A stretch of DNA of 64,000 nt, taken from a plasmid. The notes under the pieces were generated by a model. That model was not told where the DNA came from, made no database searches, and saw only the letters and a program-made list of their open reading frames with translations. The translations under genes and the position numbers were made by a program. The stretch lies in sequence record NZ_CP092205.1. One strand, written 5' to 3'. This document shows positions 21,671 to 52,884 of this stretch, in pieces; position 1 is the first letter of the stretch, and every line of letters begins with the position of its first letter.

Positions 21671-22570
21671 TTAAGGATGTCTAGATGAGCATATTCTACA
21701 ATTGCACATTTGAGAAGTGAAATGCCTAACTCCAACGACAGAGTTGTTAATTCTATCCGCTCTTTGAAAAATCAAATTAAATAAAGAGTCTTCCGAATTT
21801 TCTAGATATCTTCTTAAAGAATAAGAACATAAGTCGGCAATTTGAATCATACTAGTAAGTTTTGAATCAACGAATAGAGGAGTTTCAATAATCTTAGTAA
21901 TATTCCCCCAAAATGTTCCGTGGTTATGAAAATGACGCATCAAATCCGTATGCCTTTTCTCTACCGTATCGTTATTATCATGAATTAATAATCCGTAACT
22001 TTCAGGCACTTGTCCGGATCTATCCATTATTTCTAAATATTTATGAAATCGATTTACAATTTGCTCAAGAGCATGCTCATCTAAAGGTCTTGCAGAAATA
22101 GTCGGGTTGAAATGAAGTTTATCAATACATTCAGCGAATAATCGGGCATAGCTCCAATTTGCAATTGTTTGCGCTAACTCTGTAATAAAATTAAGACGTT
22201 CTGTATAAGTGAGGTGAATATATGAGGCGGTTTCTCTGAAATTCTTTTTTGTTTGTTTTAATCTTTTTGAATTCTTTTGTCTTTGAAGTTTGTGAATTTC
22301 AGATATCCGAAATCTTTCGACTTCTTGCTTTCTTTGTATGTGGTCTAATGATTCAAAATTTGGAATATTCTGTTGTTCGTAATACGGTCTTAAAATCCAA
22401 CCTGTATGAATTTCGGCACCTTCAAGATTAAATTTTCTTTTTATATTATCAATTTGCTTTTCGCTTATATTCCAGAATTTCACAGGAATAGAAAGACCAG
22501 CTAAAACGTAGTGGCTTGTATTTCCAGGAATGTTTGGAGTCCCAGATTCATCCAGGTAGCAAAGATACAT
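21671..22570 (-). CDS. DUF3800-like protein (YLDESG N-terminus)
   Basis: MYLCYLDESGTP N-terminus characteristic of the DUF3800 family. Opposite strand to flanking phage genes, very AT-rich. Confidence 0.5.
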   Translation of the reverse strand: MYLCYLDESGTPNIPGNTSHYVLAGLSIPVKFWNISEKQIDNIKRKFNLEGAEIHTGWILRPYYEQQNIPNFESLDHIQRKQEVERFRISEIHKLQRQKNSKRLKQTKKNFRETASYIHLTYTERLNFITELAQTIANWSYARLFAECIDKLHFNPTISARPLDEHALEQIVNRFHKYLEIMDRSGQVPESYGLLIHDNNDTVEKRHTDLMRHFHNHGTFWGNITKIIETPLFVDSKLTSMIQIADLCSYSLRRYLENSEDSLFNLIFQRADRINNSVVGVRHFTSQMCNCRICSSRHP

Positions 22571-22739: not shown

Positions 22740-22825
22740 CTCAATCTCTACATAGTAGAGTGTCCAAAATTTTGCGTCTAAACGCGGGGTTTGTGTCCAA
22801 ATTAACGGTATATAGGGATCAGTAA
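22740..22825. repeat. ~90-bp repeat element, copy A
   Basis: ~85% identical to 33556-33647 (…tctctacatagtagagtgtccaaaattttgcgtctaaacgcggggtttgtg…tagggatcagtaa). Confidence 0.6.
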
Positions 22826-23009
22826 TAACGTTATCATATTTTTTATTATTTATAATTTTTTTTGAAAGGCATAAACAGAAATCTTTCATCTAGCATTCAA
22901 TATTGTAATTTCGAATTCCGGCAACACCCTATCTAAAGAATTTCAAAAATAGGGACACGTATCCATATCTTTCCCTTCCGATTTTTCTTTCGCTAATACA
23001 AGGGTCTCT

Positions 23010-23933
23010 ATGTCAGAGACCCAATTTCTTCACCCGTTCCATATCATGAAAGCCACTCCGGAGGATCGGACTGGCGCAATCAAAATCCTAGTCAAAGCGT
23101 CTTCGGAACGAGAAGATCGGCAAGGAGAAGTTATCCTTAAATCCGCATATGCGGATCTATCGATGCGGTCCGAATTCACTTCTCAAGGATACTTCGATTT
23201 TAACCATTTAACGGACCATATTGATAAAGAAATTCGGGACTTAAAAAAAGAAGGTAAGTTAACCGGATCGGTTCTTGTCGATTTACAAAAATCCAAAGCA
23301 GAAGCAATTATCGGCGCGCCCGAACAAATCGGGTTGAAAGAAGATTTTCCGGCGCACTATGGAATCAAAGACGACGGACTGTATATTCTCGGAAGGCTTT
23401 TTCCCGGAAACAAATTCGCAGAAGAAATTCGAAAAGGATTACAAGCCGGGTTTCAAGGTTGGGGAGCTTCTGTTTCCGGATTTGCGAGACCTCAAGACTA
23501 CCAAGGAAAAACAATTCGCAAAATTCTTCTGCGTAAATGTGCGATTGCTCCACTTCAGGAGGTCATCAATCCCGATACTTCGGTTCAATTGATAAAGGGA
23601 GCAATATTTCTTCGAGATATTGAGAAGAGTATTTTAGAAGGAGTATCAGATCCTACTGATCTTTCAACGAACTTAGAATCCTTCGAACTAGAACGACTTA
23701 GACGAATTGAACGTAAACTCGACTTTTTAACAAAACTATTTCAATCCGATCCAGAAGCGCAGGATCGATTCGTCGAACTCATCATCTCCGATATTTCGGA
23801 TCGTGTTAGAAATCAGGGAATGGAACTTCGGTCCGCCCTGATTCGCTCGGTTCTCCAAACAGAATACAGCATCGAAGGCGAAGATTTAGAAAATCTCACC
23901 GATGCCATATTTCTAAAACTGAGCGGAGAATAA
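23010..23933 (+). CDS. prohead protease-like or head morphogenesis protein
   Basis: DRQGEVILKSAYADL resembles the S78 protease D..GEvi..gAF motif. First gene of a protease-scaffold-capsid-like triplet. Confidence 0.35.
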   Translation: MSETQFLHPFHIMKATPEDRTGAIKILVKASSEREDRQGEVILKSAYADLSMRSEFTSQGYFDFNHLTDHIDKEIRDLKKEGKLTGSVLVDLQKSKAEAIIGAPEQIGLKEDFPAHYGIKDDGLYILGRLFPGNKFAEEIRKGLQAGFQGWGASVSGFARPQDYQGKTIRKILLRKCAIAPLQEVINPDTSVQLIKGAIFLRDIEKSILEGVSDPTDLSTNLESFELERLRRIERKLDFLTKLFQSDPEAQDRFVELIISDISDRVRNQGMELRSALIRSVLQTEYSIEGEDLENLTDAIFLKLSGE

Positions 23934-23936
23934 CCG

Positions 23937-24764
23937 ATGATACAAGACGCGATCAATCGTCTGAAGGAGCGTGTAAAATCAAAACACGTAAAAAAATCAG
24001 ACGATCCTACTAGCGAAGATGCACCTGACTTACAAGCCTTAGCTTCGCAAGTAACAACGTTACTAGATTCTGGAAGTGTAATTCCGGAAACAGATAAGGT
24101 GAAGGAGTGGGCGATTGCTCAAGGAATTTCGGAAGGAGAAGCTGAATCCTTTGCAGATGATGTAATTGATGCGTATTTCGACGACAACGACGGAAACGAA
24201 ATTGCAAAATCCGAACTTGGAGAATCCGAAAAGAAGAGTAAAGAAAACAAAGATGATGAAGAGGAGGGAACCGGATCCGAAAAGTATGATAAGAAAGAGG
24301 AAAAAAACAAGAAGAAGAGAAAAGACGAAGAAGAATCTGAGAAAGAGAAGGAGATCGAAAAAGCTCGTCTTGAATTTATCTCAGAAATTCAAAGCACACT
24401 AGAAATTCTAAAAGCCGGTCAAGAAACTCTCGCGGCTGCGATTGAGCATCTAATGGATACTGCGGAAGATAATTCCCAGCTATCAAAAGAAGTTCAAACT
24501 CTCAAATCCGAAATTGGAGCGCTCACAAATCGTCCAGCCACCGAGAAAGCGCCAGTCACTTCCAAAATACAAAAGTCCAACGATCCCACAAAGGGGGGAG
24601 GACCCATTACAGGAAAGGACCGAGATCAAACCGGAAACCTAATCATCAAGGGAATCGAAGCCGGTCGCTGCCAAATGGAAGATATCGCGTATTTCGAGTC
24701 CACCTGGAAACTTTCCGACCGAGCACAAGCATTTATAAACGATTATAAAGAGGTTCAAAAATAA
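23937..24764 (+). CDS. scaffolding-like protein
   Basis: Highly charged K/E-rich coiled-coil-like region (KKEEKNKKKRKDEEESEKEKEIEKARLEF) immediately before the capsid candidate. Confidence 0.4.
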   Translation: MIQDAINRLKERVKSKHVKKSDDPTSEDAPDLQALASQVTTLLDSGSVIPETDKVKEWAIAQGISEGEAESFADDVIDAYFDDNDGNEIAKSELGESEKKSKENKDDEEEGTGSEKYDKKEEKNKKKRKDEEESEKEKEIEKARLEFISEIQSTLEILKAGQETLAAAIEHLMDTAEDNSQLSKEVQTLKSEIGALTNRPATEKAPVTSKIQKSNDPTKGGGPITGKDRDQTGNLIIKGIEAGRCQMEDIAYFESTWKLSDRAQAFINDYKEVQK

Positions 24765-24765
24765 T

Positions 24766-26217
24766 ATGACCGGCCCTCACACACTCGATCAACTAATCGA
24801 GATTAAAAAAGCGTTCGAAGCGAACACTGCCTTAAACGGCGCGACTCCTTTCGTAGACATCAACTCTTCGGGTGCAGTTTTATCCATGCAGTCGCTTGAC
24901 AAAGTCTTCGTGGCTACCGTTTCAACGGACAAAGATTTTAAGTTTTTAAAAGAAGTTCCGAGAAGAACCACAAATCAGGTTATCGCGGAATACAACCGGA
25001 ATCGTTCTCATGGCGGTGGTTGGTACAATTCTTCCTATATCGGACAGTCCGATGAACCTTCCTTCAGAGATCCACAACTCGATCGATTGTATAACGAAAT
25101 CAATTATATTGCGGAAGGATATTCTTTTAACAAAGTAGTCGATACCGTAAATAACTCACAAGATCCGGAACTTACTCAATCGAACGCCGCACTTAGGCGC
25201 GGTATGGAAAACCAAATGAGAAAAATTTGGTTTGGAAAGAAAGACTTAAATAAGCTAGAACAAGACGGATTCGAAACACAAGTAAAGTCATTAGGCAAGA
25301 ATTTCTACACCGATTGTCGAGGTGCGTTACCCGCCGTCGATGAAATGAAATACTATAGCTCTCAAGTCAGAACAAAACAATTCGGTCAGGTGAACTATGC
25401 TAAAATGCACCCCGCGACAAAAGCTCTCTATGATCAAAATTATGACAGAGTAGGGGGAGCCGTTGTAATCCAGAATAACAACCAATCTCCGGGGAACACT
25501 TCTCTTAGTAATATCGTTCACGGTGTAGCGGATTCAAACGCTAAAGATAACATGATCCTTTTTGATGATGATATCTGGCTTGATCGTCATGAATGGAGCG
25601 TCCCCATGAGACGTGACCAAGTTGGGGCTTGGGTTGAAGGAGCTACAAGTGATACGGAAGCTCCCGCAACTCCTTCCTTTACCATTGCATCTTTGGCTTC
25701 GGTTCCCGGATCTCTTTTCACAGGATCGTATGTAGGAACCTACAAATACAGAATCTCTGCGGGCGATTTGAGACATTGGTCGAAAGCTTGTAACGAACAA
25801 AGTATAGCAATTCCAAACGGTGGAGCGGCAGAACTTACAATTACTCCTGGAACGGGTGGAGTACCCGAGACAAGATTTGTGATCTTTCGTGAAACAGGCC
25901 CGAATTCTTCCATCATTCGTTACATGAGAGAGGTAAAGAAAAACACTGCGGGTCCTACAACTATTCTCCAAGATTTAAACGAAGATCTTCCCGGAACCAC
26001 GATTATGGTACTGGGAGATTTTAATTCTAAATCGGCAAGCGACGACACAAGAACTCTAGTATTAACCGAACTTCTGGGATATACGAAGACGCTCTTTCCC
26101 TACGGAGCGGGAGGAGCTTTACGTTCTCGTCTTGGGATCGTTGAAAACTATAGCGTTCTTCAAATCCTTGCGGAAGACAAGTTCCGAGTGTTTACGAACG
26201 TTCCAGTCAGACTCTAA
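24766..26217 (+). CDS. major capsid protein candidate
   Basis: 483 aa directly downstream of the scaffold-like gene with a 1-nt gap; order inference only. Confidence 0.4.
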   Translation: MTGPHTLDQLIEIKKAFEANTALNGATPFVDINSSGAVLSMQSLDKVFVATVSTDKDFKFLKEVPRRTTNQVIAEYNRNRSHGGGWYNSSYIGQSDEPSFRDPQLDRLYNEINYIAEGYSFNKVVDTVNNSQDPELTQSNAALRRGMENQMRKIWFGKKDLNKLEQDGFETQVKSLGKNFYTDCRGALPAVDEMKYYSSQVRTKQFGQVNYAKMHPATKALYDQNYDRVGGAVVIQNNNQSPGNTSLSNIVHGVADSNAKDNMILFDDDIWLDRHEWSVPMRRDQVGAWVEGATSDTEAPATPSFTIASLASVPGSLFTGSYVGTYKYRISAGDLRHWSKACNEQSIAIPNGGAAELTITPGTGGVPETRFVIFRETGPNSSIIRYMREVKKNTAGPTTILQDLNEDLPGTTIMVLGDFNSKSASDDTRTLVLTELLGYTKTLFPYGAGGALRSRLGIVENYSVLQILAEDKFRVFTNVPVRL

Positions 26218-26281
26218 AGTTTCAAGCACACACAACGTTTAGAGAAATTTCAGGAGGGGTAGAATCTTCTACCCCTTTTTT

Positions 26282-27025
26282 ATGAACTACGAGCAACTCT
26301 ATGAACAAGGAAAATTTCCAAGAACCAAGCTCGTTCTAAATCGAATCGCAAAAGCGACACAAGAAGCCTGGACGAACAATACACTCGCCGCAAAACCTAG
26401 CTGGTGGGGAAAAATGGCAATGTCCAACCGTCCGGGAGGAGGGGGAGGAATTTTAATTCGGAAAATTCCGGGAGGTTTTCAAGTATATCACCCGAATAAG
26501 GGAAAGTATAACTATATGGCAGTCATTGAGCGAGGTAGGGGACGTTACGATATGCGACCTTCTCTCTTGGGTGGAAGCCGCGCAAGGATGGGTGCAAACG
26601 GTCCTTATGTAATTGTCCCAATCACTAAAAATGAAAACGGAACTCCCGTAAGTCCAAAAAACAATTCAATCAATTCTGTGATTATCAAAACCGGAAGTTT
26701 CAAAGAAGAAAACGCTCATGGACAAATGGTCACTCGAAATCGGTACAAATACAGACAAGATCCAGGAATGACCGGTCAAGGAAACGTATTTGCTAAAGAA
26801 CAAAAATACAAAAATGGAAAAATTCAAAGATCCTTTGTAAAATTCGTCGTAGTCACAGAAAAAAGCCGTAACTTCTTTCAACCTGCTATTCCCGCTCAGA
26901 AAATTTTAGCCGGAATCAAAGAGGATGTAAAATCGGCTTTAAAATCTAAAACTTTGAAACAAGCAGTCGCATCCGATACCAAAGATTTGATTTTAGATCT
27001 TTTAGCCAAAAAAAAGAACCGATAA
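26282..27025 (+). CDS. hypothetical head-tail joining protein
   Basis: 247 aa between capsid and sheath genes. Confidence 0.3.
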   Translation: MNYEQLYEQGKFPRTKLVLNRIAKATQEAWTNNTLAAKPSWWGKMAMSNRPGGGGGILIRKIPGGFQVYHPNKGKYNYMAVIERGRGRYDMRPSLLGGSRARMGANGPYVIVPITKNENGTPVSPKNNSINSVIIKTGSFKEENAHGQMVTRNRYKYRQDPGMTGQGNVFAKEQKYKNGKIQRSFVKFVVVTEKSRNFFQPAIPAQKILAGIKEDVKSALKSKTLKQAVASDTKDLILDLLAKKKNR

Positions 27026-27051
27026 TCCGTTTCGCTCTATGATCCGAGCTA

Positions 27052-27828
27052 ATGGATACAAGTCTTCGGGAAGAAGAAGCAAGACAACAAGACGGACGGG
27101 ATAAAGGAGCAATTCTAATCACGTATCCGGCCCCTCCGGAAGATACGGTTGTAGAATATTTTCGTAACTCCTTACCACTCACCGGTCTTTCTTTACGAAA
27201 CATAGACGTTCCCATAGTTCACGGACATCCGCTTTACCAAGAAGGAATTTCAACAACCGGACCAAATTCAAAATTTCCAAAAGTAGGAATCGAATGCACA
27301 ACGGATAGAAATACTCAATTTTTAGGATTAAACGAACACCATTTTAAGAATTCTGAATCTTTTATAAAATTTTTAACTGAAATTTCAGAACTTCCGGAAA
27401 GTCAACGTCTTTCCACAAAATCGTTCCTCGATGAATTCAGTCGAAAGAAACACTTCCAACAACTTCAATACACCGTAGAGTCAGAGGTCGTCATTTGCGG
27501 TTTCGCAACCGGTAACGCCGGTCGGAACACAAACAAATGGATCTATGACGCCGCCCTCGCCGTGACCCTGCTCATGGCAAATGACCTTCCGGTTCTATAT
27601 CCCGGGCTTACAGTTTTTCTTCCCGAAGATACAGAACCCAATTTAAGCACAGCCGATTTTTCAGAACCATTCTGGGGATTTGAAATCCGCGTACGACTTG
27701 TACAATCCAAATCCATTTTTCGAACCAAACCCGCATTCCTTTTTCCCGATACTCGCTCCTTCGATGTATTTTTAACCCGAAGTAAAACCCGACTGGAAGG
27801 CAGCTTCGGGTTAGAGGATAAGCCTTGA
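27052..27828 (+). CDS. hypothetical head-tail joining protein
   Basis: 258 aa between capsid and sheath genes. Confidence 0.3.
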   Translation: MDTSLREEEARQQDGRDKGAILITYPAPPEDTVVEYFRNSLPLTGLSLRNIDVPIVHGHPLYQEGISTTGPNSKFPKVGIECTTDRNTQFLGLNEHHFKNSESFIKFLTEISELPESQRLSTKSFLDEFSRKKHFQQLQYTVESEVVICGFATGNAGRNTNKWIYDAALAVTLLMANDLPVLYPGLTVFLPEDTEPNLSTADFSEPFWGFEIRVRLVQSKSIFRTKPAFLFPDTRSFDVFLTRSKTRLEGSFGLEDKP

Positions 27829-28023
27829 TAGACGAAGACGCAAATTTGCAAAAGGGAACAAAAGTTTTAACCAAACCTAAAACGAATCAAACACCCGAAG
27901 AGTTTCTACTCTGTAAAGAAAGAGAACTTGGAAGAACGATTTCTCCCCGCTTTCGAAACTTCTTTTACCGGGAGTTAAAAGCGAAAGGAAACAGTATCGA
28001 AGACGCTTGGAGAATTATCAATC

Positions 28024-29832
28024 ATGGGCTCTAGAGAAGTTGAATTTCTAGGGCGCGGATACATCCAACCGGGTGCGCGTGGAGCCTTTAGAGTTAAAGC
28101 TCAAAGCACCGGAATCTCTCCGGATCTAAATACTCTAATTCTAATCGGACCCGCAGACAACGGGTATGACGCAGGAGACACAAGTCTCGAAACGTCGAAA
28201 CGAGTTTTAGAATTTAGCGGTGCAGATGAAGCAAGGTCCGTCTTTTTCTCCGGTGATTTAGCGGACGCCGTTTCTAATGCGTTCTCTCCTTCCAAAGATT
28301 CTCGATTTGCGGCTGGTCCGCAACTCATCAAAGCTCTGAACATAAATCCGAACGCTTATGCAAGCGCGCCGGTTGTTTCTATCGTTGCGACAATTTCGAA
28401 TACGGTAAAAGCGATCATTCCAGGACCGAGAGGAAATCAAATCCGGTTTCGCGTAACGAGCGGCGGAACGATCATTCAAATCGGGGACAGTGACGGAATT
28501 GGAACTTCTTCACCTTTAGAATCAAACGAATTACAAATTCAATATGTAGGTAACGGACAAAACGCAATTCTCACTTTCGATGGGATTTCACTTCGAGTTA
28601 CACTTTCCGGAACTGCGCCGACCGACGGATCCGTTAACTTAAATGTTCCGATCAAAAACTATCCGACGCTTGGAGAGCTCGTCGGTTATGTTTCCAGTAG
28701 AGTCGGATATCAAATCACTCTTCTTTCACAGCCCGATCGAAAAACTTCTACCTTAGACCATCTTTCTCTTACCGACGCCGTAGATGTGAAATCGGCTCCG
28801 GTCGCGATGAAATCTCTTCTTTTTCAACAAGAAAGTTTTTTTTTAGGGAACGGTCTCGCCCAAGTTGCCGCAACTCAAGAAAGAAAGCCTCTCGCAGACA
28901 TGGCGTCTTTTACTTATCTAAATGGGGGCTCTACGGGTATTGCGACCGCGCAGGACTATATCGATGCGATTGATTATGTTTTCGATACGGAAGTTTCCAA
29001 AGGATTTTACGTCAACGTTTGTACCTCTATCCAATCGGTAGTTCTCTATCTTGCGGATAAACTGACCTATGGAAATTCACCGGACGGTTCGGATGAACGA
29101 TTTGGCGGTGCTGGCTTAGATTTAACGAAGTCAGTCGATGCGAGAATCGAAGACATCAAAGCAACCAATTCCGAATACATGGTCTTGGGTCTTTCTCCAA
29201 TCACTCGTTACGCGGCTGATAAGATCACTTTAAAAACTTATCCGGGTTGGATGCTCGCGGTTTTACATAACGCAATCAAAGCTTCCACAAACGTAAGAGA
29301 AACGGCAACTTACAAAGATCTGAATATCGTAGACGCACCCGAAAAACTTTCCAAGACACAGATCAAAAAAGTTTTAAGAGCTGGCGGACTCATCGTTACA
29401 CGAAAGCCAAATAACGGGGCTTTTAAAATCGAAATGGGTCTGACCTCATATCAAGCCCAAAACCTGATTAAAAATCAAGCGTCCACAGTTTGTACCGCAC
29501 TCGCTCTCGTAAAAGATTTCAGGGAATGGCTCGACGTTACGTTCATCGGCGAAGTCCCAACAGATCCGGATGCGCTCGGAACTAACCTAACGGACGCCGA
29601 CATTCGAACCGCAGTTACACAACGCTTTCGTAATGTATATATTACGCAATACGGCTGGCTTACAAGAAATATCTACACAGGTGAACCCGCATTCGACGAG
29701 AAGTTCGACATTCGTCGTGACGGTGACGCTTTGTATTTCATTTTCCCTGACGGCAAGATCGTAAGCCCGATCAACTACATGTTTTTTCTAGTTAATTTGG
29801 ACGTTGTTCGCGGAGCGAATAACGGAGGTTAA
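28024..29832 (+). CDS. tail sheath protein candidate
   Basis: 602 aa immediately followed by a ~140-aa tube-sized gene; classic sheath-tube pair. Confidence 0.5.
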   Translation: MGSREVEFLGRGYIQPGARGAFRVKAQSTGISPDLNTLILIGPADNGYDAGDTSLETSKRVLEFSGADEARSVFFSGDLADAVSNAFSPSKDSRFAAGPQLIKALNINPNAYASAPVVSIVATISNTVKAIIPGPRGNQIRFRVTSGGTIIQIGDSDGIGTSSPLESNELQIQYVGNGQNAILTFDGISLRVTLSGTAPTDGSVNLNVPIKNYPTLGELVGYVSSRVGYQITLLSQPDRKTSTLDHLSLTDAVDVKSAPVAMKSLLFQQESFFLGNGLAQVAATQERKPLADMASFTYLNGGSTGIATAQDYIDAIDYVFDTEVSKGFYVNVCTSIQSVVLYLADKLTYGNSPDGSDERFGGAGLDLTKSVDARIEDIKATNSEYMVLGLSPITRYAADKITLKTYPGWMLAVLHNAIKASTNVRETATYKDLNIVDAPEKLSKTQIKKVLRAGGLIVTRKPNNGAFKIEMGLTSYQAQNLIKNQASTVCTALALVKDFREWLDVTFIGEVPTDPDALGTNLTDADIRTAVTQRFRNVYITQYGWLTRNIYTGEPAFDEKFDIRRDGDALYFIFPDGKIVSPINYMFFLVNLDVVRGANNGG

Positions 29833-29834
29833 GA

Positions 29835-30266
29835 ATGGCTAAGAGCGTACGACCTAATCCGGCTGTACTCACCGGTAATGACGCAATCGTTAAAATCAAC
29901 GGACAAGCCGTTGGATTTATGAAATCGTTACGAGTAAACGTCAATAATAACGTTGAAAGAATTCAAGCACTTGGATATAGAAAACCACGAGGTTTAAAAT
30001 CTCTCGCGTGGCAAGGAACCGCTTCGGGTGAGTTTCATATACTCAGAACTCCCGTTGAAGGAGTTGTCGTAATTGATACGCATAATGATGAGCACGCGGA
30101 TGATCTCTATGACATTTTAGTTATCGACAAAACTTCCGGAAAACGCGTTGGACTACTCACGGGAGCGGTAAATACAGACGGTTTTGGGTTAAACAATAAT
30201 GAGTTCTCCGGAAGAGAAGTCGAATTTGAGCTTATGGATTGGGAACCGATGGAAGCATTCAACTAA
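29835..30266 (+). CDS. tail tube protein candidate
   Basis: 143 aa, 2 nt after the sheath gene. Confidence 0.5.
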   Translation: MAKSVRPNPAVLTGNDAIVKINGQAVGFMKSLRVNVNNNVERIQALGYRKPRGLKSLAWQGTASGEFHILRTPVEGVVVIDTHNDEHADDLYDILVIDKTSGKRVGLLTGAVNTDGFGLNNNEFSGREVEFELMDWEPMEAFN

Positions 30267-30530
30267 TCGAATTTGAAATGGTCCCAATAGCTTGAATTCT
30301 TTAAGAATATCGAATTTAGAATCTATCGAAAATTTCTGAATTTTAAACATATTCAATAGATTTACCGATGGATTGGGTTGTTTTAAAGGGACCAAGTAGT
30401 AGGCAATTTATTAGTTGGCAAAAAAGAAGAACAGGTTGATCTTTGGAAGTAGACAGTAACTATGAAGCAAAGGTTTTTAGTAGTTACGCGCTGGATCTAA
30501 GGCAAATTCCTAAAAACTTTTAGGTTCCTT

Positions 30531-30761
30531 TTGCTTTTACCAGCTTGGTCCGACTCTAATAATAAAGAGCAAAAAATGGCAGCGACTCCAATTCAAAAAA
30601 TTCCAACGCTTACAGGCGAAAAAGCAAAACGTTTTATTGAAAGAGCAGACTCTTCGGAACGTCCGGCTCTATCTATTTCTGAGCAACAAAGAAAAATGTA
30701 CGCCGCTCTCTCAGAAAAAAATCAACAAAATTCACTTTTTATAGAGGTTCCCTCCTTTTAA
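30531..30761 (+). CDS. small hypothetical protein (likely starts at internal MAATP…)
   Basis: 76-aa ORF in the AT-rich island between tube and chaperone genes. Confidence 0.3.
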   Translation: MLLPAWSDSNNKEQKMAATPIQKIPTLTGEKAKRFIERADSSERPALSISEQQRKMYAALSEKNQQNSLFIEVPSF

Positions 30762-30790
30762 TTTCTTATTTTGAAAGAAAGAAAATAGAA

Positions 30791-31318
30791 ATGATAAGAA
30801 TGTCGCACACTTTAAATAGAATTTGTTTCTCTTCACTCTTGTTTTTAATTTCTCTATTTTTATTCAATCAATGTAGTTGGATTAATGCTATTGGAATTTT
30901 AAACAATACCGATGAAGTCGTTACACTTTCCGTGACCTTTCAAAAAAAGTTAACAACAAAAGAATTTTATCGCAAAATCTCACATTCCTCTAACGAATAT
31001 ATAGAGAACTCGAATTTTTTTAGAGTTCCTGCAAACAAATATTTTAGCCCCGATCGATTCTCTACAGAAAAGGGAATCAAAATTCCTATTCAAGAAATCT
31101 TGTATGACTCCGAAAAAGGAGAATTTCGTTTTGAATTAAAACCTAAATTCGCATATTTTTTTGACTTCGCAATAAATGACAGTAATATTATGGATGCTCT
31201 TTTTTCTAAAATTGAAATCTCTAGTAAAGATAAACGAACTACAATTCAAAGTGATAAATTCATTTCATTTTTTCCAAAAAACGACAACTGCAATTGTTTT
31301 CTTTTGATCTACAAATGA
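30791..31318 (+). CDS. putative lipoprotein
   Basis: Signal peptide with FNQC lipobox-like motif; AT-rich codon usage. Confidence 0.35.
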   Translation: MIRMSHTLNRICFSSLLFLISLFLFNQCSWINAIGILNNTDEVVTLSVTFQKKLTTKEFYRKISHSSNEYIENSNFFRVPANKYFSPDRFSTEKGIKIPIQEILYDSEKGEFRFELKPKFAYFFDFAINDSNIMDALFSKIEISSKDKRTTIQSDKFISFFPKNDNCNCFLLIYK

Positions 31319-31408
31319 ATTCTTATGAATCTGAGCAAACGAAGGAAATATTAAACTTTCCTTTTGTACAAGTTTAAAGTCCGAAAACTTTTTTATGGAA
31401 GCATTCAA

Positions 31409-32095
31409 TTAAATCCACTCATCTGGTTTTCGATATACGTTTCCAAATAAATCATATACTTCACTTGGAAATTGAGAATTATGGATAGCTGAATTCCGAA
31501 TATCTTTCATAAAATCGCAATTCTTTTTTAAAACTTGGCTCGGGTTTTTTTGGGGATTAAGATATCCAACTTGTTTTTTAAAATCGTTTCTTATTATTCT
31601 AACGGGTTCTAAAAGGTCGGAGTCACCTGAAATTAGAACAGCTACGTCATATTCATTTTTGCAAGCATCATACAGCATATGAGTGGCAAGATTAACATCC
31701 GAGCCTTTTTCTTCAGTCTTGATTACATTAGCAAATCCTGGGCTATCAGCTAATTTCATCTTCACAGTATGGGATAAGAAATGACCGTAATAGACTTCAA
31801 AATTAGGATTTGTTTTTAATGCTTTAATATAATTTTGCTGACGATTCAATGGTCCATTATCATTTTGCCTAGGTTTTACTTCGGCAGTATAATATTTAAT
31901 TTTTAGAATTTGATGCAAATTGGATGGAAGAAGAATGGAACAGAGTCTGCTAAAATCTAACCATTTATATTTGGTCCCTTTTACTTTCCCATAGTAAAAG
32001 TTGAAGGCATCAATATAAACATAAGTTCTTTTGGCTGTCATAATAAAGCAAGGGCTACCTCTTTCGAAGTAGCCCCGCGCCCTACGCATTACCAT
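31409..32095 (-). CDS. NYN-domain (PIN-like) ribonuclease
   Basis: YVYIDAFNFYYG…EKGSDVNLATHML…DVAVLISGDSDLL match NYN/LabA-like catalytic motifs. Opposite strand inside the tail cluster. Confidence 0.55.
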   Translation of the reverse strand: MVMRRARGYFERGSPCFIMTAKRTYVYIDAFNFYYGKVKGTKYKWLDFSRLCSILLPSNLHQILKIKYYTAEVKPRQNDNGPLNRQQNYIKALKTNPNFEVYYGHFLSHTVKMKLADSPGFANVIKTEEKGSDVNLATHMLYDACKNEYDVAVLISGDSDLLEPVRIIRNDFKKQVGYLNPQKNPSQVLKKNCDFMKDIRNSAIHNSQFPSEVYDLFGNVYRKPDEWI

Positions 32096-32235
32096 AGGGG
32101 TTATACACCTTTTTATAGCATGATCGATAATTTTGTCAATCGAATAAACTTGATAATTTTCAAGTATCTAAAGTATTTGGACATTTTCAAATTAGGCATC
32201 TTCTCCGATGTTGCACTTGCGTACATGATTGGAGA

Positions 32236-32947
32236 ATGAGAATTCTAGAACCAAATAAAAGAGTTATCTTAAATGTAAAATACGAAGGTGGCTCTTACAA
32301 ATTCGAAGCGGATATCGCCGATCCGAGTACGGAACTCGACATTGAAATCGCGGTTGCGAAACGATTAAACGGGGCATCGCTTGAATCGATTCCGAACACG
32401 ACTTACGGGTATATCTACGCAATCGCTACGTTAAACCACGTCATCAAACAAATTCCTGAAGATTTTCCAATTTTCGACATTCAGACCTTTGAGCAGATAA
32501 GGGACAAAGAGTTTGTTATCAGACTCTTTAAAGAATACGAGAAAAAGGAAAACTGGTTTAAATCAGAGTTAAAAAAAAATAGGGACGCTCGACGCACTGA
32601 ACGACGAAGAGAATCTTCTCGACCTCTTCCTTATGAACCAGATGAAAATACTTCCGAAAGGGGTAACTCATTTGGGAAATCTTTTTCTAGAACAAAAGAG
32701 GTTCATCCTCGAGGCGACGGCCAGACTCGACATTCCGAATCTTCTCATGAGAGCGAAACTACAATCTCAGAAACGCCAAGTTCTGAAGATGAAACCGATG
32801 GAATTCCTGGAGAATATAAGCCCGGCAATGGCTCATATCCTGGAGGCAGAGGCCGGGTACTCACAAGACATGCTCACGAGTGAAGGGGAATTAAAACGAA
32901 AAGAACTTTTAGACAGAATCGATAACGAATTAAAATTCTATGGCTGA
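32236..32947 (+). CDS. tail assembly chaperone candidate with frameshift at an A9 tract
   Basis: Frame 1 (32236…) degenerates into low-complexity after the A9 run at 32571-32579. The +1 frame opens exactly within the run, reads as protein and stops at 32947, overlapping the tape-measure start. Confidence 0.45.
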
Positions 32948-33569
32948 AGAATCCTTAAATATAAAAGTCAAGGCAACGCCTGACTTCAAGTCAGTAGAAA
33001 AAGAATACGACCGAATTGCAAAAAAGGGGAAAAAAGGAATCCCTGTTTCCGGTCTTGGAAAAGTGCCCGAGAAAAAGAGATCTTCCAGTGGGAGCGGAAA
33101 CGGTGGCGGCAGTTCCGAAAAAAAGAAACTCGAAGCGGCATCTCGGTATGCCGGGGGAAGTGCTATGGCTTCGAAAGTCGGAGCCGATGGATCGGATTTA
33201 GACGAAACTCAAAGAGGTGGTTTTTTTAATACTCTTGATAAAAAGATTTCTGCCGCTCGCGAACTGTTGCGAAAAAAGAAAAAGAAGAAAGACGGCGAAG
33301 ATGAAGAATCTTCTCCTAATTCGAGTCCAAGTGGAATTGGTCTCACCTCTGCAAAACAACTTCAACTTCAAAAAGCAGAAATTAAAATTCAACACGCAAA
33401 TTTTGACAAAGGAGGATTCTCAGGACTTCCGGGATCTGTAGGCGGAGGAGGGTCGGGAACAGACGGCGGATCAGTCAAAGGAAATAATTTTTCACTGATG
33501 GGAGCCGCGATTCCAATCGCCGGAGCCGCTTTTGCAATCGCGGGAGGAGTGCTACTCATCTCTACGTAA
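32940..33569 (+). CDS. tape-measure protein candidate, N-terminal segment
   Basis: Gly-rich with a hydrophobic stretch, directly after the chaperone. Terminates inside repeat copy B. Confidence 0.4.
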   Translation: MAEESLNIKVKATPDFKSVEKEYDRIAKKGKKGIPVSGLGKVPEKKRSSSGSGNGGGSSEKKKLEAASRYAGGSAMASKVGADGSDLDETQRGGFFNTLDKKISAARELLRKKKKKKDGEDEESSPNSSPSGIGLTSAKQLQLQKAEIKIQHANFDKGGFSGLPGSVGGGGSGTDGGSVKGNNFSLMGAAIPIAGAAFAIAGGVLLIST

Positions 33570-33647
33570 TAGAGTGTCTAAAATTCTGCGTCTAAACGTG
33601 GGATTTGTGCTCAAATTAACGGTACTCTATTTTATAGGGATCAGTAA
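33556..33647. repeat. ~90-bp repeat element, copy B
   Basis: Matches 22740-22825. Sits exactly between the two tape-measure-like ORFs. Confidence 0.6.
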
Positions 33648-33685
33648 AGACAATCTCCGCAATCGGGGAACAGTATCACGCGGCA

Positions 33686-34750
33686 ATGCAAAGTCAGTCC
33701 GGAACAATTGGCGCGACCGGCGGATACGTTGGAGGTGGGGGAGGGTATTTCTCAAATTCAGAACTCGCACAAGCAAACGTTGCTCGCGGTCGTGTAACAG
33801 GTGAAAACATTTTTGGAAAGGGAAACCAAATCGATTCTAAAACAATGCTCTTTGCCGCTTCTCAAGGAAAAGGAATTGCTGAAGTCGTAAAAGAGTTAGA
33901 AACAATTCGAAAAGATTCAAAAAATGCGGACATTAGTTTTCTTCGAGGAGGTGCTTCGGCTTCCGGATTTCAGGGTTTAAGACAATCCGAATATATCTCA
34001 AAACTAGCAACCATTTCTGAAAATTTAAGAGGAAAAGGATACTCGGGAGATATAAGCGACTACGCTAAATTCTCAGCCGGTATGCAAAGAACAGACGGAA
34101 TCAATATGGATCCTTCAAGACGTATGGCATTATCCGAACAGCTTTCCGATCAAGGAAGACAAGGAGCTTTTGGAGGAGGAGTCTTTGGTTCTCTTTCCAT
34201 GGCTGAAGCCTTGAAAGCAAATGGAGGAGACGTGATAAAAGCAATTAGGGAATCCGAACTAAATCCCGGAAAATATATGTCTTCGGCAATGGGGGGACTC
34301 GATGCAACGACTCGCGGACTCGTAAATAAAATGCAAGGCGGAAGTTTTTCCGAGATTGCAGGAATGAAATTCGGATACAACGACATAAAATTCGATAACT
34401 CTAAAATTGACGCAGGATTTAACAAGGGACTCAGTCTTGATAATGCAAAAAAAGAAACGTTTGCAACCGACGTTGGAGCGCAGGCCGCACAAATCGGTTA
34501 CGATATGAATAAAGCGATGATCGATTTATTCAACGAAAACAAGGGCGCGATGAAAAGTTTAGCAACAACAGTCTCAAACATTGAAAAGTCTGTGATTCCA
34601 GTTATCTCCGGACAGATCACATCGCTTGTCGGAACAATCGACAAACTTGCAAAAGGTGATTTTGGCGGGGCACTCGGGGAAATGATGGGAGGTCTTGGAA
34701 AACTTGCGACTCTTGCAAACCCCGCCGGTCTTTTGGTACGATCTAAATAG
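33686..34750 (+). CDS. tape-measure protein candidate, C-terminal segment
   Basis: Gly/Ala/Ser-rich low-complexity with GG motifs typical of TMPs. Confidence 0.4.
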   Translation: MQSQSGTIGATGGYVGGGGGYFSNSELAQANVARGRVTGENIFGKGNQIDSKTMLFAASQGKGIAEVVKELETIRKDSKNADISFLRGGASASGFQGLRQSEYISKLATISENLRGKGYSGDISDYAKFSAGMQRTDGINMDPSRRMALSEQLSDQGRQGAFGGGVFGSLSMAEALKANGGDVIKAIRESELNPGKYMSSAMGGLDATTRGLVNKMQGGSFSEIAGMKFGYNDIKFDNSKIDAGFNKGLSLDNAKKETFATDVGAQAAQIGYDMNKAMIDLFNENKGAMKSLATTVSNIEKSVIPVISGQITSLVGTIDKLAKGDFGGALGEMMGGLGKLATLANPAGLLVRSK

Positions 34751-34791: not shown

Positions 34792-35181
34792 ATGGAAATA
34801 CATCGTGTCCTTTTTCAGCTTTTCAATAGAACCGGCGTTGCAATCGAAAGAGAGGTTGAGGAATTCGCTCAAGAATTCCAGGTCCAACAACCTCAAAAAC
34901 TTACCAAGGCATTTAAACAAACAGACAATCTTGTAACGATCCCGATTCCTGCAGGGATTCAGTTTAAATACGTTCTCATTCTTGCAACTTACCTAGCCGA
35001 TGACACAGCGATCGGAATAAAAAAAGACGATCCCGCACCAATTATTGTTCGAATCAATGGATCGGCAATCGATCATCCTTTACCGCAAGGGTTTATGGCT
35101 TGGACCGGAGGACTTACTTCTTTGAGAGTCGCAACGACCTACGACACGAATCAAGTTTTAGTAGAAGTTTATTTGGGATAA
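34792..35181 (+). CDS. hypothetical tail protein
   Basis: 129-aa ORF; its stop overlaps the next start (TAATG). Confidence 0.35.
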   Translation: MEIHRVLFQLFNRTGVAIEREVEEFAQEFQVQQPQKLTKAFKQTDNLVTIPIPAGIQFKYVLILATYLADDTAIGIKKDDPAPIIVRINGSAIDHPLPQGFMAWTGGLTSLRVATTYDTNQVLVEVYLG

Positions 35182-35710
35182 TGAATTCAGTTTTTGATTT
35201 CTTACTAGGAGGGATTGGAAACCAAGTTCGAATCGGAAAGGGTGGTCCTCAAATCAAAGGATCCTCTTCCGGTTTGGATATTCGTCTTCCGGATGATTCC
35301 GATTTTGGAACTCTGAGAGTTGCCGCGCCTCAGTTTGGAAACGACGCAGTCAATCTAGACTGGATCAAAGGGCAAGTTCTTTCGAATTGGAATACGCCCG
35401 TTCAATCTTTAGCGGATCTCAGAGCGATTTCTTCTTTCGATCGAAAAGATAGACAGATCAGAGAAGTAGAGGATGAACTTGCATTTTATCAATTCGACTT
35501 AGAATCAACTGCCGCGGTACCGGATCCGCACGATGTAACTCGAAGTATTGTCCCCAATGATATTGTACTACCGAACCCTGGTAGATGGTTAAAAACTACA
35601 GCTCGTGTACAACAACATTCCCAACTTCTGGGATTAGCCTCAAGCGACGATCATCCACAATATCAATTACGTTCTGAAAAAAACTTAATGAATGGATTTC
35701 CCGGACTTTC
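35182..35710 (+). pseudogene. tail fibre-like gene, 5' part interrupted by IS66-family element
   Basis: Reading frame continues precisely across the IS (…NGFPGLS | NDLGNPGIQLV…) once the IS and one 8-bp TSD are removed. Confidence 0.55.
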
Positions 35711-35769
35711 GTAACCACCCAACTAACCACACCTTCCGCTAATTTCAAAAATCTGTTAAAATCCTTTTA

Positions 35770-36057
35770 ATGAAAAAACCGAATATCGATTGGCAAAAAG
35801 AGTTTGAAGATTTTTCCAAAAGCGGACTTTCCCAGCCTCAGTATTGTAAAGAAAAAGGGATTAAATATACGACGTTTCGTTACCATTGGGAGAGACGATT
35901 AAAAAAACAGGACAAAGACGGCTTTGTAGAAGTGCCTCACTCAGCATTAAACGTTAGCTCTGCTTCAGGGTCTGAATTTTTGACTCTAAAAATAGATTCG
36001 TCAGGTAAGGCGCATCTTCAAATGAATCTTCAGTTTAGTCTTGGTATATGGAGCTAA
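35770..36057 (+). CDS. tnpA: IS66 Orf1 (TnpA-like)
   Basis: 95 aa, HTH-like, first ORF of the IS. Confidence 0.7.
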   Translation: MKKPNIDWQKEFEDFSKSGLSQPQYCKEKGIKYTTFRYHWERRLKKQDKDGFVEVPHSALNVSSASGSEFLTLKIDSSGKAHLQMNLQFSLGIWS

Positions 36058-36395
36058 ACCCGGGTAGCAGAAAAGTGTATTTGAGACCTGGGGTCACAGA
36101 TTTAAGGAAGTCAATCAATACACTTGCGATCATCGTAGAGGGCAGAATGAAGAAGGACCCATATTCAGAGAGCCTATTTTTATTCTGCAATCGTAAGAAG
36201 GACAAACTGAAAATGCTTTATTGGGACAAGAGTGGATTTTGTCTTTGGCAGAAGAGATTGGAAGAAAGCAAATTTCCGTGGCCGAACACGGAGGAAGAAG
36301 TTCAAAAGATTCCCGTGGAAAGATTTCATTGGCTATTGAACGGAATTGATTTTTTCAAGGAACACAAGAAACTAAAATATCAGAAAGTAAGCTGA
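36048..36395 (+). CDS. tnpB: IS66 Orf2 (TnpB-like)
   Basis: 115 aa, MELNPGSRKVYLRPGVTDLRKSINTLAIIVEG typical of IS66 Orf2. Confidence 0.75.
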   Translation: MELNPGSRKVYLRPGVTDLRKSINTLAIIVEGRMKKDPYSESLFLFCNRKKDKLKMLYWDKSGFCLWQKRLEESKFPWPNTEEEVQKIPVERFHWLLNGIDFFKEHKKLKYQKVS

Positions 36396-36437
36396 AACGA
36401 TTGACTAAAACTTTGTGTTGATTACAACTTCATCATC

Positions 36438-38099
<1,662 letters not shown>

Positions 38100-38107
38100 T
38101 CGCTTAC

Positions 38108-39097
38108 GGACTTTCTAATGATCTTGGAAATCCAGGAATACAGCTAGTTTCAAATGGTTCGATAGTGAGTGTGATTCGCTCTCTTGCGACGGCCGCAAAA
38201 TCCTATTTTTTACCCGATAAAAACGGAACGATTGCCTTAGATGATCCGTTCATCGGTGCGACTGATACGATCAACGGAGCGAAAGGTTTAGTACCCGTTC
38301 CACTCATTGCAGACAGAGAACGTTTCTTATCCGGAGACGGAACGTGGAGAACAAATTTTGGATCTCTTAAAAATTCAATACTTCAAAATGGATCTTATAC
38401 CGCCTCCAAATACGAGCGAGTATTGTGCGATGTCTCGGGAGGTAGTATTTCAATTACTCTTCCGCTAAGTCCCGATGACAACGTAGTCGTTGGAATTTTA
38501 GACATTTCGAATTTAGCCGGAACTCACACGATCACTGTTTTAAGAAACGGCCAACTGATCGAAGATCTGCCTGAAGACTGGCAATTAGATTTAGACGGTG
38601 GATATTGGGAACTTGCCTACTCCGCTCAAAGAGGAAGCTGGTATTTTCTTTCCATTCCAGCGTATAACAACGTTTCTCCTTCCAGTGGTTTTATCACGGA
38701 TTCTCCACTTTTTACCGAAACCTCTCTTTCTCCTTCCGCAAGAGCGGTCAAACAATACGCCGACACACAAGATTTAATTGTAATTCAAAGTGTTGCGTTA
38801 GTCGGCACCATGCAAGAAGGATCCGGGAATGCACCTGTAGGCACTCTTGTAAAAAACGCTTGGTTTGAAGGAACAACCGACTCGTCCGGTCTTTGTTCGG
38901 TTTCTACAGGTCTCGGAAATAATATTTTATCTGTGATCGCTTCCGTCAGTGACGGATCCGGGAAATGGTTTTCCATTTCAACATCGGGAGGTGCGAACAC
39001 ACTCTTTTATAACGATTCAGGTCATGTGTCGTTTCAATTCAGTGGGAATCCACTCTTTCAAATGCGCGCGGTAAGATTCAAGGTTGAACACAAGTGA
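38108..39097 (+). pseudogene. tail fibre-like gene, 3' part downstream of IS66 copy 1
   Basis: Continuation of the 35182 frame after the TSD; ORF-track start at 38030 lies inside the IS. Confidence 0.5.
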
Positions 39098-47299: not shown

Positions 47300-47372
47300 A
47301 TTGATCGTAAATATAATTATTCTAATATTGCTATTTCATGCTGGAGCAATTTTATTGCTCAAGAGATATTAT

Positions 47373-48401
47373 ATGACAATTTTTAAAGCAATAAAATTTT
47401 CCCAGAATGGTATCGATTTATTTTCATTTATAGCCACTTCAAAATTCATTTATGAAAATTTTGAAGTTTCAAAAAGAGTTAAAGACAAAGAACAGGGATA
47501 TCAGAGATCTTTTTCAAGCACTCGCATTAAAGAGCTATCAAAACATATAACCAAAGATGCAAATATTATCCCGAATTCAATTTTGGTAAATATTGACTCT
47601 GGATTCTTAAATTATAACGAAAATAAAAATGAATTAGAACTTCCTGATTCAACTTCTCTAGGATTAATTATTGATGGCCAACATCGGGTAAAAGGAGCAT
47701 TTGAAGGTAATCAAGATTTTCTATTACCTGTGATTGCTACGGTAGGCCTAAGTACAAAAGAACAAGCCAAGCTTTTCGTCACAATAAATAAAACTCAAAA
47801 AGGAGTCCCTGTTTCATTATATTTAGACCTACTTAACCTAACTGAGGGTGAAATAGAGAACTTCGATGACGAGTCAGTCCCTACCGAAAGAAGAGCTGCT
47901 GAAATTGCTAGGCGATTAAACGAAGACGAGGAAAGTCCATTGGTAGACCTAATTCGTATGACAGGTGAACCGGGGAGAGGGATTGCTTTGAATGAATTTG
48001 TAAATAGGTCAAAATATTTACTCGATTCAAGAAAGGGAAAGTTAATTGATTTTGGATTTGAACAACAATATTTAATTTTCAAAGTTTATTTTCGAGCTTG
48101 GAAAGCTGTATTCATCGATCAGTGGAAAGATGAAAGCTCGCAAATTCTTAAACAAACTTCTTTTAGTGGCTTATTATTAGCCCTATATGATATATTTCAA
48201 CTAACGATGCAATACTATAAATTATTCAACACGGATAATTTAATAAAACTTTTGAACAATATCGCTGATTTTAAATTTTCATCCGACAACATTATTTCAG
48301 GTGGTATAAAAGCCCAAGAAAATGTAGCGACTACATTAATAAACAAATTAAAGAGCCAACTTCGCGAGACAAATAATAATATCAACCTAATCGAGGAATA
48401 A
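47373..48401 (+). CDS. DGQHR-domain (DndB/DpdB-like, ParB superfamily) protein
   Basis: LGLIIDGQHRVKGA and downstream LFVTINKTQKGV motifs. ORF-track start 47301 (TTG) abuts the terminator, so ATG 47373 is the likely start. Confidence 0.6.
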   Translation: MTIFKAIKFSQNGIDLFSFIATSKFIYENFEVSKRVKDKEQGYQRSFSSTRIKELSKHITKDANIIPNSILVNIDSGFLNYNENKNELELPDSTSLGLIIDGQHRVKGAFEGNQDFLLPVIATVGLSTKEQAKLFVTINKTQKGVPVSLYLDLLNLTEGEIENFDDESVPTERRAAEIARRLNEDEESPLVDLIRMTGEPGRGIALNEFVNRSKYLLDSRKGKLIDFGFEQQYLIFKVYFRAWKAVFIDQWKDESSQILKQTSFSGLLLALYDIFQLTMQYYKLFNTDNLIKLLNNIADFKFSSDNIISGGIKAQENVATTLINKLKSQLRETNNNINLIEE

Positions 48402-50437: not shown

Positions 50438-50838
50438 TTTTAGACTTAAAATTTTAAGAATAATTTTGATGAGTTAAGTTTGTTATAAGATTGCTTATTC
50501 AAGAATTCCATTTAATTTTGTGCTTCTGTCGCCTAACTATTAATCTACGCACGTCTTATAAACACCTAAAAATAACTGAATATACGAATATCTTAAAACC
50601 CCGGAATCTATCAATCCCAAAAGTTTAGAAAATAGAGTTGTAACGCAGTTCAACGAGACGGATGGATGATTCTCAAAAACTATTTGGAGTTGATTCTTAT
50701 GTGATGCAACAGGCCACTTCCGATAATGTAGATTTGGTCTCATTAGTGAACATTTGTTCATAAACGTACCCATTCATCCTTTACACATCGTACTCAATAC
50801 AAGCTTTACAAAAAGAAACGTATATATGTAACTCACGT

Positions 50839-52062
<1,224 letters not shown>

Positions 52063-52662
52063 AAGATTTGTAAAGGATGTAATGAGTTAGTTTTGTAAGC
52101 GATGAAATGAGTACTTACCTTCATAAACGTACCCATTCATCCTTTAGCGCATCGGTAACACTCTATACCGGAAACATGAGTTACACTTTATTCGTTGTAG
52201 TTGTACACAGGTGTTTCGTATTTCAATACTTTTCCTGTAAATAAATCTTACACAAACGCAATCGAATCTATGAATATGGGCCTGAGGAAAATTATCAAGA
52301 ATCGAGATTCGTTGCCCAACGATAAAGCCGCAGTCAAATTTTTATTTGGCTTTGAATAATATGTCCAAAAAATGGGCTATGCCCATTCAAGATTGGGATG
52401 ACGAGCGATCCTTAGAGCGAGTCGCTGAGTTCAAGCGATGAATCAGTTTTCGATTCTTTTCGGAGAGTTACTGAGATTAGATTCGTTTTAAAGTATGTCA
52501 TTTATACAATATTGCTGACACTTCAAAGATTGCGGGAACTCCTCTCACAATCTTTGAAAAAATCCGTCGCTATTTGCACTTATTTTTGTAATGAGCAAAT
52601 TAAACGAAAGAACTTCGTCTACAAAGAATACGGGCAATACCTGCCACTCTAATTACACGCGT

Positions 52663-52872
52663 CTATTTTTTACTTAGAATGTCTGAGTCTCGAAGATCTT
52701 GCTCCGTGAGGCCTGTGATTTCCAGGATAGTCTTTAGATCGATCCCTTTTTGAAGCATTTTACCGGCTGTTTCTAGTTTCCCTTTTTCAATACCCTTCTC
52801 GATACCCTGGCGCATCCCTTCAGAAATGAGCCTTTCCGCGGTTGTCATCGTCAATTCCTCATATTGTTCCAA
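52663..52872 (-). CDS. stand-alone duplicate of the Rpn C-terminal tail (RpnS-like small protein candidate)
   Basis: 69 aa ~85% identical to the last ~70 aa of the upstream Rpn ORF ([18 protein letters not shown]…[12 protein letters not shown]…[16 protein letters not shown]…). Confidence 0.45.
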
Positions 52873-52884
52873 TTTAGATCTGCT

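Follow-up and report, generated by a model that had tools for sequence, protein, structure and literature searches.

A probable IS630-type miniature element of pathogenic Leptospira, present twice in an LE1-like prophage-plasmid, with one copy in a predicted tail gene

Background

The closest described counterparts of the repeat analysed here come from two distant hosts. RUP, a miniature inverted-repeat transposable element (MITE) of ~107 bp in Streptococcus pneumoniae, is linked to the insertion sequence (IS) IS630-Spn1, and the Correia elements (CREE) of Neisseria measure 100-155 bp, include features of promoters and of IHF binding, and are not known to have a transposase partner. In this work we analyse a repeat that occurs twice in a 64,000-nt stretch of the plasmid record NZ_CP092205.1 (the window), which contains the late region of an LE1-like Leptospira prophage. 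One copy lies upstream of the head module and the other splits a gene of the tail module. We are highly confident that the repeat is a non-autonomous MITE of the IS630/Tc1-mariner type, native to pathogenic Leptospira, and that its second copy has recently broken the tail gene.

The Leptospira element shares with RUP a length of ~100 bp, the absence of coding sequence, terminal inverted repeats (TIRs) resembling those of a resident IS630-family IS, the duplication of a TA target, many dispersed and mostly intergenic copies, and a presumed mobilisation in trans. It differs from RUP in host phylum and sequence, in its shorter length (83-90 bp), in the presence of two diverged subfamilies that track species groups, and in having one copy inside a prophage structural gene whose empty allele is kept in relatives. 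Its small size, TIR-bounded structure, TA duplication, high copy number and ability to disrupt or modulate neighbouring genes are also found in the Correia elements, although no promoter-like site was found in the Leptospira element, whereas a candidate partner IS was found for it. IS630-type MITEs are well known, and the Leptospira family is a new member of this class that involves no new mechanism. A census of conserved MITEs (cMITEs) in prokaryotes and viruses identified Leptospirales as the most MITE-rich order, with a median of ~154 per genome, located ~90% of prokaryotic MITEs in intergenic regions, and found MITEs common to hosts and their viruses (PMC11602168); its main text describes no Leptospira family and no insertion in a phage tail gene. 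Neither this particular family nor its IS partner was described in the literature that we searched, and a search with the terminal 12-mers returned unrelated primer sequences only.

Results

Two copies of the element in the window

The limits of the two copies were fixed from family alignments and from empty sites.

22740-22822, plus strand: MITE copy A, 83 nt, with TA at 22738-39 and 22823-24
33555-33644, plus strand: MITE copy B, full length, 90 nt, with TA at 33553-54 and 33645-46

In its context, copy A reads ...CATAT-TA-CTCAATCTCTACATAGTAGAG...TATAGGGATCAG-TA-ATAACG and copy B reads ...GAGTGC-TA-CTCATCTCTACGTAATAGAG...TATAGGGATCAG-TA-AAGACA. The two are equal in 74 of 82 ungapped columns (90%), or 81% identical when the indels of 1 nt and 8 nt are counted. 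The larger indel reflects the lack in copy A of 8 nt (CTCTATTT) of the inner right terminal repeat, and the smaller one an extra base relative to copy B. The repeat finder groups the pair as family D6. A 23-nt core pattern is present at two places in the window, where 100 shuffles predict 0.00. Copy A is located in a divergent intergenic region between an open reading frame (ORF) at 21671-22570 on the minus strand and the head-module gene at 23010-23933 on the plus strand, with 186 bp separating its end from the ATG at 23010. The original prediction, made from the sequence of the window, had placed both copies correctly to within 1-3 nt. Its figure of ~85% identity fits between our two measures, and its distance of ~185 bp from copy A to a protease-like gene agrees with ours.

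A multi-copy family in pathogenic Leptospira

A blastn search with copy B found 89 places in 31 Leptospira plasmids, including 28 full-length matches with sharp ends; the annotation under every one of these family matches is 'none'. The exact 24-base pattern of the right end occurs at 49 sites on many contigs of six pathogenic species (L. interrogans, L. noguchii, L. borgpetersenii, L. weilii, L. alstonii and L. alexanderi); the rest of the 185,579 species genomes searched have no match. IMG/VR adds two matches to this pattern, and the phage collection searched for the element contained no copy.

Alignment of 61 near-full-length copies extends over 83-90 nt with sharp limits and unrelated flanks, and family copies are present at dozens of unrelated chromosomal sites in both orientations. 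No ORF fits inside the element. The copies fall into two subfamilies, that of the weilii/borgpetersenii group and that of the interrogans/noguchii group, which share 75-78% identity. The element is bounded by imperfect inverted repeats of ~26 bp, TA/CTSATCYCTAYA...GTACC, and the family consensus ends are TA/CTCATMWCTAYA... on the left and ...TATAGRGATCAG/TA on the right. The ends of copy B match in inverted orientation at 17 of 24 positions, and the right repeat of copy A is damaged by its 8-nt deletion.

A TA dinucleotide flanks the left end in 56 of the 61 copies and the right end in the same number (56/61), and 51 of 61 have it on both sides. Over these copies the flanks show a palindromic, AT-rich bias around the TA, T-A-Y-TA / TA-A-T-A. 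We attribute this bias to target choice and not to the element itself, because the flanks of copy B are native coding sequence. A long ORF reappears on removal of the element in only 2 of the 61 copies, and copy A is not one of them; the others lie at unrelated chromosomal and plasmid sites. Copy B is an unusual genic hit for this family.

Diverged members (73-77% identical) often lie close to a canonical copy, at a distance of a few hundred bp or less, and some have the opposite orientation. Such members were seen at four loci:

L013, 1748-2008: diverged members near a canonical copy
L041, 1160-1468: diverged members near a canonical copy
L043, 1512-1847: diverged members near a canonical copy
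L036, 37-175: diverged members near a canonical copy

This clustering points to hot spots for insertion or to subfamilies of greater age. Matches to the right end only (L007, L009, L045 and L010) were considered as ends of a longer IS; no transposase ORF lies near them, and they were set aside as truncated copies.

Empty sites and relative age of the two insertions

Relatives of the prophage were taken from IMG/VR, and their filled and empty sites were compared with the window through blastn pieces. Three relatives (L059, L060 and L061), which are 97.6-98.7% identical at the nucleotide level in the flanks adjoining copy B, have the empty site GGAGTGCTAAAGACAATC, or in a longer read ...GTGCTAAAGACA... 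with a single TA, where the window has CTA-(90 nt)-TA-AAG. In the blastn comparison, 90 nt of the window remain unmatched between the two pieces, which overlap by 2 nt (TA) on the relative, a pattern characteristic of a 2-bp duplication. The copy A site is empty in a relative of 86% identity (L078), where it reads CATATTAATAAC (CATAT-TA-ATAAC), again with a 2-nt overlap. The target-site duplication is therefore seen against two independent empty sites with one TA each.

Two other loci, L075 and L077, are 99.5% identical to the window and hold copy A unchanged. The first belongs to the same contig as L060 and the second to the same contig as L061, so that these phages have copy A and lack copy B. 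From this we conclude that copy A is older and copy B very recent. Copy A, as the older intergenic insertion upstream of the head module, has since lost 8 nt of its right repeat. A further close relative (L057, positions 1297-1382; IMGVR_UViG_2541047040_000006) contains an internally deleted copy of this MITE at a position that has no insertion in the window, which indicates that the element has hit this phage lineage repeatedly. A megablast search with 15.7 kb of the window against plasmids gave no near-identical record.

The interrupted tail gene

Copy B separates two ORFs that correspond to the parts of one gene:

32940-33554, plus strand: 5' fragment of the interrupted tail gene (native codons 1-205); the ORF extends to 33569 through MITE sequence
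33647-34750, plus strand: 3' fragment of the interrupted tail gene (native codons 206-572); the frame is open from 33638

The first 15 nt of copy B provide the codons CTC ATC TCT ACG TAA (LIST and a stop) of the upstream ORF 32940-33569, and the first ATG of the 3' fragment, at 33686, is an internal Met that is conserved in homologues (AAMQSQS). The original prediction had described both features, namely that copy B supplies the last codons and stop of the 5' segment and precedes the ATG of a 3' segment in another frame. The gene is split directly after a hydrophobic segment, with the conserved Met 16 codons downstream. Removal of 92 nt (copy B and one TA) joins the two frames into an ORF of 572 aa, which reads ...AFAIAGGVL/KTISAIGEQYHAAMQSQ... 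around the junction. Copy B is thus inserted at codon 205/206 of a 572-codon gene at the tape-measure position of an LE1-like myovirus prophage/plasmid. The predicted protein is truncated to 205 native residues followed by LIST, and the remaining 367 codons would have only the internal Met as a start.

The ancestral gene is intact in the relatives, as seen in four kinds of evidence: i) annotation of three plasmid loci (L001-L003) from L. interrogans and L. weilii, where the fused junction GGVL/KTISAIGEQYH aligns without gaps to single ORFs of 558-566 aa and the insertion site reads TTA-AAA; ii) matches of the fused protein to five LE1-like Leptospira phages, in one tblastn piece each; iii) an uninterrupted junction sequence in five IMG/VR loci; and iv) a continuous tblastn match to the fused protein in 16 of 16 IMG/VR loci. 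The proposal that a mobile element had broken the gene is thus borne out by a multi-copy repeat with TIRs and TA duplications and by near-identical prophages with an intact gene, and no two-gene arrangement was seen among the relatives checked.

The fused protein covers phrog_3763 over positions 1-564 of 564 (E = 1e-271). This family has no known function, and the protein matched no known tape measure protein family, Pfam entry, annotated PHROG or PDB sequence. Of the original claim of a broken tape measure gene, the part concerning one gene broken by copy B holds; the tape measure identity is positional only, and we use that label as a putative one taken from gene position. Upstream, the sheath gene (phrog_279, 28024-29832) is followed by a 143-aa gene and then by two ORFs in overlapping frames directly before the interrupted gene, an order that is compatible with a tape measure gene but is no proof of it. 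The overlapping ORFs, at 32236-32883 (phrog_4951) and 32633-32947 (phrog_19433), lie in different frames and resemble two-frame tail assembly chaperones, with a required shift of +1/-2 and not -1. Such a chaperone pair usually comes before the tape measure gene.

A candidate partner IS

A search for the end motif in inverted pairs located 300-3000 bp apart identified an IS630-family element in the L. weilii plasmid NZ_CP092204.1 (L056):

L056, 13191-14271: IS630-family IS, 1081 bp, TA-flanked
L056, 18604-19686: IS630-family IS, 1083 bp, TA-flanked
L056, 28229-29214: deleted copy of the IS630-family IS

Another TIR pair, at positions 630-1748 of L024, represents two adjacent MITEs and not an IS, and inside the window the search gave no partner IS. 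The IS in L056 has two reading frames, joined at an A8 run, that encode a helix-turn-helix (HTH) part and a DDE_3 part. Both halves score above the cut-off of NF033545 'IS630 family transposase' (103.7 and 115.1 bits against 100), the second half matches PF13358 DDE_3 at 1.3e-29, and HTH_33 and HTH_23 are also found in the transposase. The left TIR of the IS, TACTGATCCCTACAAAAAAGAGTACC, is identical to the reverse complement of the right end of copy B at 24 of 26 positions, and its left end agrees with the left end of copy B at 19 of 26 by manual count. The IS and the MITE also have in common their TA flanks and their presence in L. weilii, and they differ in that the IS is 1.08 kb long and coding (HTH and DDE_3). 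They share only ~26-30 bp at each end, and the ~35-bp core of the MITE is unrelated to the IS.

The full-length IS is found in only five L. weilii plasmids, at 4-8 matching places each, and these five fall within the eight plasmids that hold MITE copies of at least 90% identity. In the proposed mechanism, the element would insert at a TA dinucleotide and duplicate it, using a transposase supplied in trans by this 1.08-kb IS with near-identical ends, which would be active in L. weilii. The co-occurrence of MITE and IS in plasmids and the recent insertion of copy B give indirect support to mobilisation in trans, which we consider probable. The split of the transposase, at the A8 run (GGTATAAAAAAAAGCGCAGG), is located at L056:19084-19170, and three plasmids contain matches to this IS with 100% identity; these observations point to programmed slippage, in transcription or in translation, and not to decay. 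Published work lists ISLbp6 among the IS630-family elements of L. borgpetersenii (PMC13046281) and reports it in L. weilii (PMC8558515). The IS in L056 may be ISLbp6.

Alternative explanations

Several observations weigh against a MITE that is mobilised by this IS and has inactivated the gene. No IS630-family element is present within the 64-kb window, so that the source of the transposase is not seen there, and the plasmid collection contains no full-length partner IS for the interrogans/noguchii subfamily. With its transposase split at the A8 run, the candidate IS may have an activity that is slippage-dependent or impaired. The C-terminal gene fragment with its conserved internal Met could in principle be translated. 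Finally, a duplicated TA and an element that carries one TA without duplication give the same sequence data.

It is very unlikely, in our assessment, that the tail-gene MITE acts as a reversible switch or that the two gene fragments assemble as a working two-piece tape measure. If the switch were real, precise excision of the element and one TA by the IS630 transposase would restore the 572-codon gene, and a sub-population could regain the production of tails.

We regard as highly improbable that the repeats belong to a structured small RNA or a cis-regulatory RNA gene family and are repeated by chance. A long hairpin of low energy is predicted in copy B (-27.7 kcal/mol, z = -4.4) and an L. 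noguchii copy also folds better than its shuffles (z = -3.3), but this hairpin is the pairing of the terminal inverted repeats, and the fold of copy A is no better than shuffles (z = -1.3). RNAalifold with 51 copies gave zero consensus pairs, and, as judged by eye, subfamily changes in the left hairpin, the TIR stem and the central hairpin break pairs. In the whole window no Rfam match reached the gathering score, and matches with E <= 1 on both copies were at chance level and outside the element. The empty sites and the TA duplication identify the repeats as inserted DNA.

There is similarly little chance that the repeat is a mobile element of another mechanism, for example a palindrome-associated one of the IS200/IS605 type, which goes in 3' of a short target and makes no duplication, or an element spread through recombination. 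The ambiguity of the TA speaks in its favour, as do a left flank that is often YTAC-like and a subterminal hairpin near the right end. Against it, the ends are inverted repeats of each other and match those of a TA-flanked IS630-family IS, no TnpA(Y1) partner was seen, and the flank preference is palindromic around the TA. Such a preference is usual for the TA-targeting DDE transposases of the IS630/Tc1/mariner superfamily.

The original prediction had offered as an alternative a phage regulatory module (a late promoter or operator, to which an antiterminator may be added) located ahead of the head operon and of a second tail operon, the tape measure being naturally encoded by two genes. Both copies are oriented as the late genes are, and the position of copy A before the first head gene would suit such a module. 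This explanation is nevertheless extremely unlikely: relatives of ~98% identity have one continuous gene and no copy B, copy A is absent from the relative of 86% identity, and the gene is a single ORF in all LE1-like phages and plasmids checked. The same element also occurs at dozens of unrelated chromosomal sites in both orientations, and matches to sigma-70-like promoters and terminators in or near either copy did not exceed chance. The module is refuted by the empty sites together with the copies at unrelated loci, and the naturally bipartite gene by the continuity of the gene in every related phage and plasmid checked.

A last reading, in which the 92 nt are passed over during expression, either by RNA splicing or by translational bypassing of the T4 gene 60 kind, and full-length protein is still made, has next to no likelihood: exact removal of the 92 nt does restore the frame, but a precise insertion gives this automatically, matched take-off and landing codons are lacking (ACG precedes the stop and none is present at the resumption point), no intron-like Rfam match was found, and at nearly all its other sites the element lies in non-coding DNA.

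Further insertions and neighbouring genes

The late region of the LE1-like myovirus includes the head protease-like gene, the major head protein (phrog_752) and the sheath (phrog_279). Its tail module contains a second insertion, two genes downstream of the one that holds copy B:

35711-38107, plus strand: IS66-family element (tnpA, tnpB, tnpC), splitting the next-but-one tail gene, phrog_4302

The fragments of the phrog_4302 gene lie at 35100-35714 and 38030-39097, and the IS66 element is missing at this site in the relative L059. A second IS66 copy is present at 58470-~60866; the two are identical over at least 2085 nt, and the window IS66 is 100% identical to a copy in the L. weilii plasmid NZ_CP092209.1, which makes it probable that the window derives from L. 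weilii or a species close to it. The N-terminus of the IS66 transposase contains a 42-nt tandem duplication (36519-36620).

Other features were observed in the same window. An insert of ~1.39 kb at ~50762-52146 is absent from the relative L057 and contains an ORF (50839-52062, minus strand) for an IS481-family transposase, which scores 231.5 bits against a cut-off of 224. At the borders of the insert lie two identical direct repeats of 27 nt (50757-50783 and 52120-52146), more than a target duplication usually measures. Between the tube-like and tail chaperone-like genes, two apparent moron genes occupy 30791-32095. The first encodes a protein of 175 aa with a signal/lipoprotein-like N-terminus (phrog_35894), and the second, on the minus strand, belongs to phrog_7929 and has a positional counterpart in L003 that is annotated as an NYN-domain protein. 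A DGQHR-domain protein is encoded at 47301-48401 (TIGR03187, 144 bits; DpdB-like or dnd-associated), and this gene may be part of a DNA-modification or defence module. Internal direct repeats of ~100 nt with 87-91% identity (D4, D5) are located at 52703-53129, in or next to the ORF at 52885-53847 on the minus strand.

Conclusions

Two disruptions in the tail module of this prophage are absent from close relatives, namely the MITE in phrog_3763 and the IS66 element in phrog_4302. Because of these two insertions, the tail module is most probably inactivated, as far as the sequence allows one to judge. The locus offers a clean and datable case of a host MITE invading a plasmid-prophage, with an old copy that is common to close relatives and a new copy that is absent at ~98% identity. 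The LE1-like replicon is probably tail-defective, which bears on its use in genetic tools for Leptospira and on phage induction from this strain. Finally, a MITE/IS630 pair with defined ends, target and subfamilies could serve as a marker for strain typing and could improve the annotation of Leptospira genomes, in which this element, so far left without annotation, can create false split genes.

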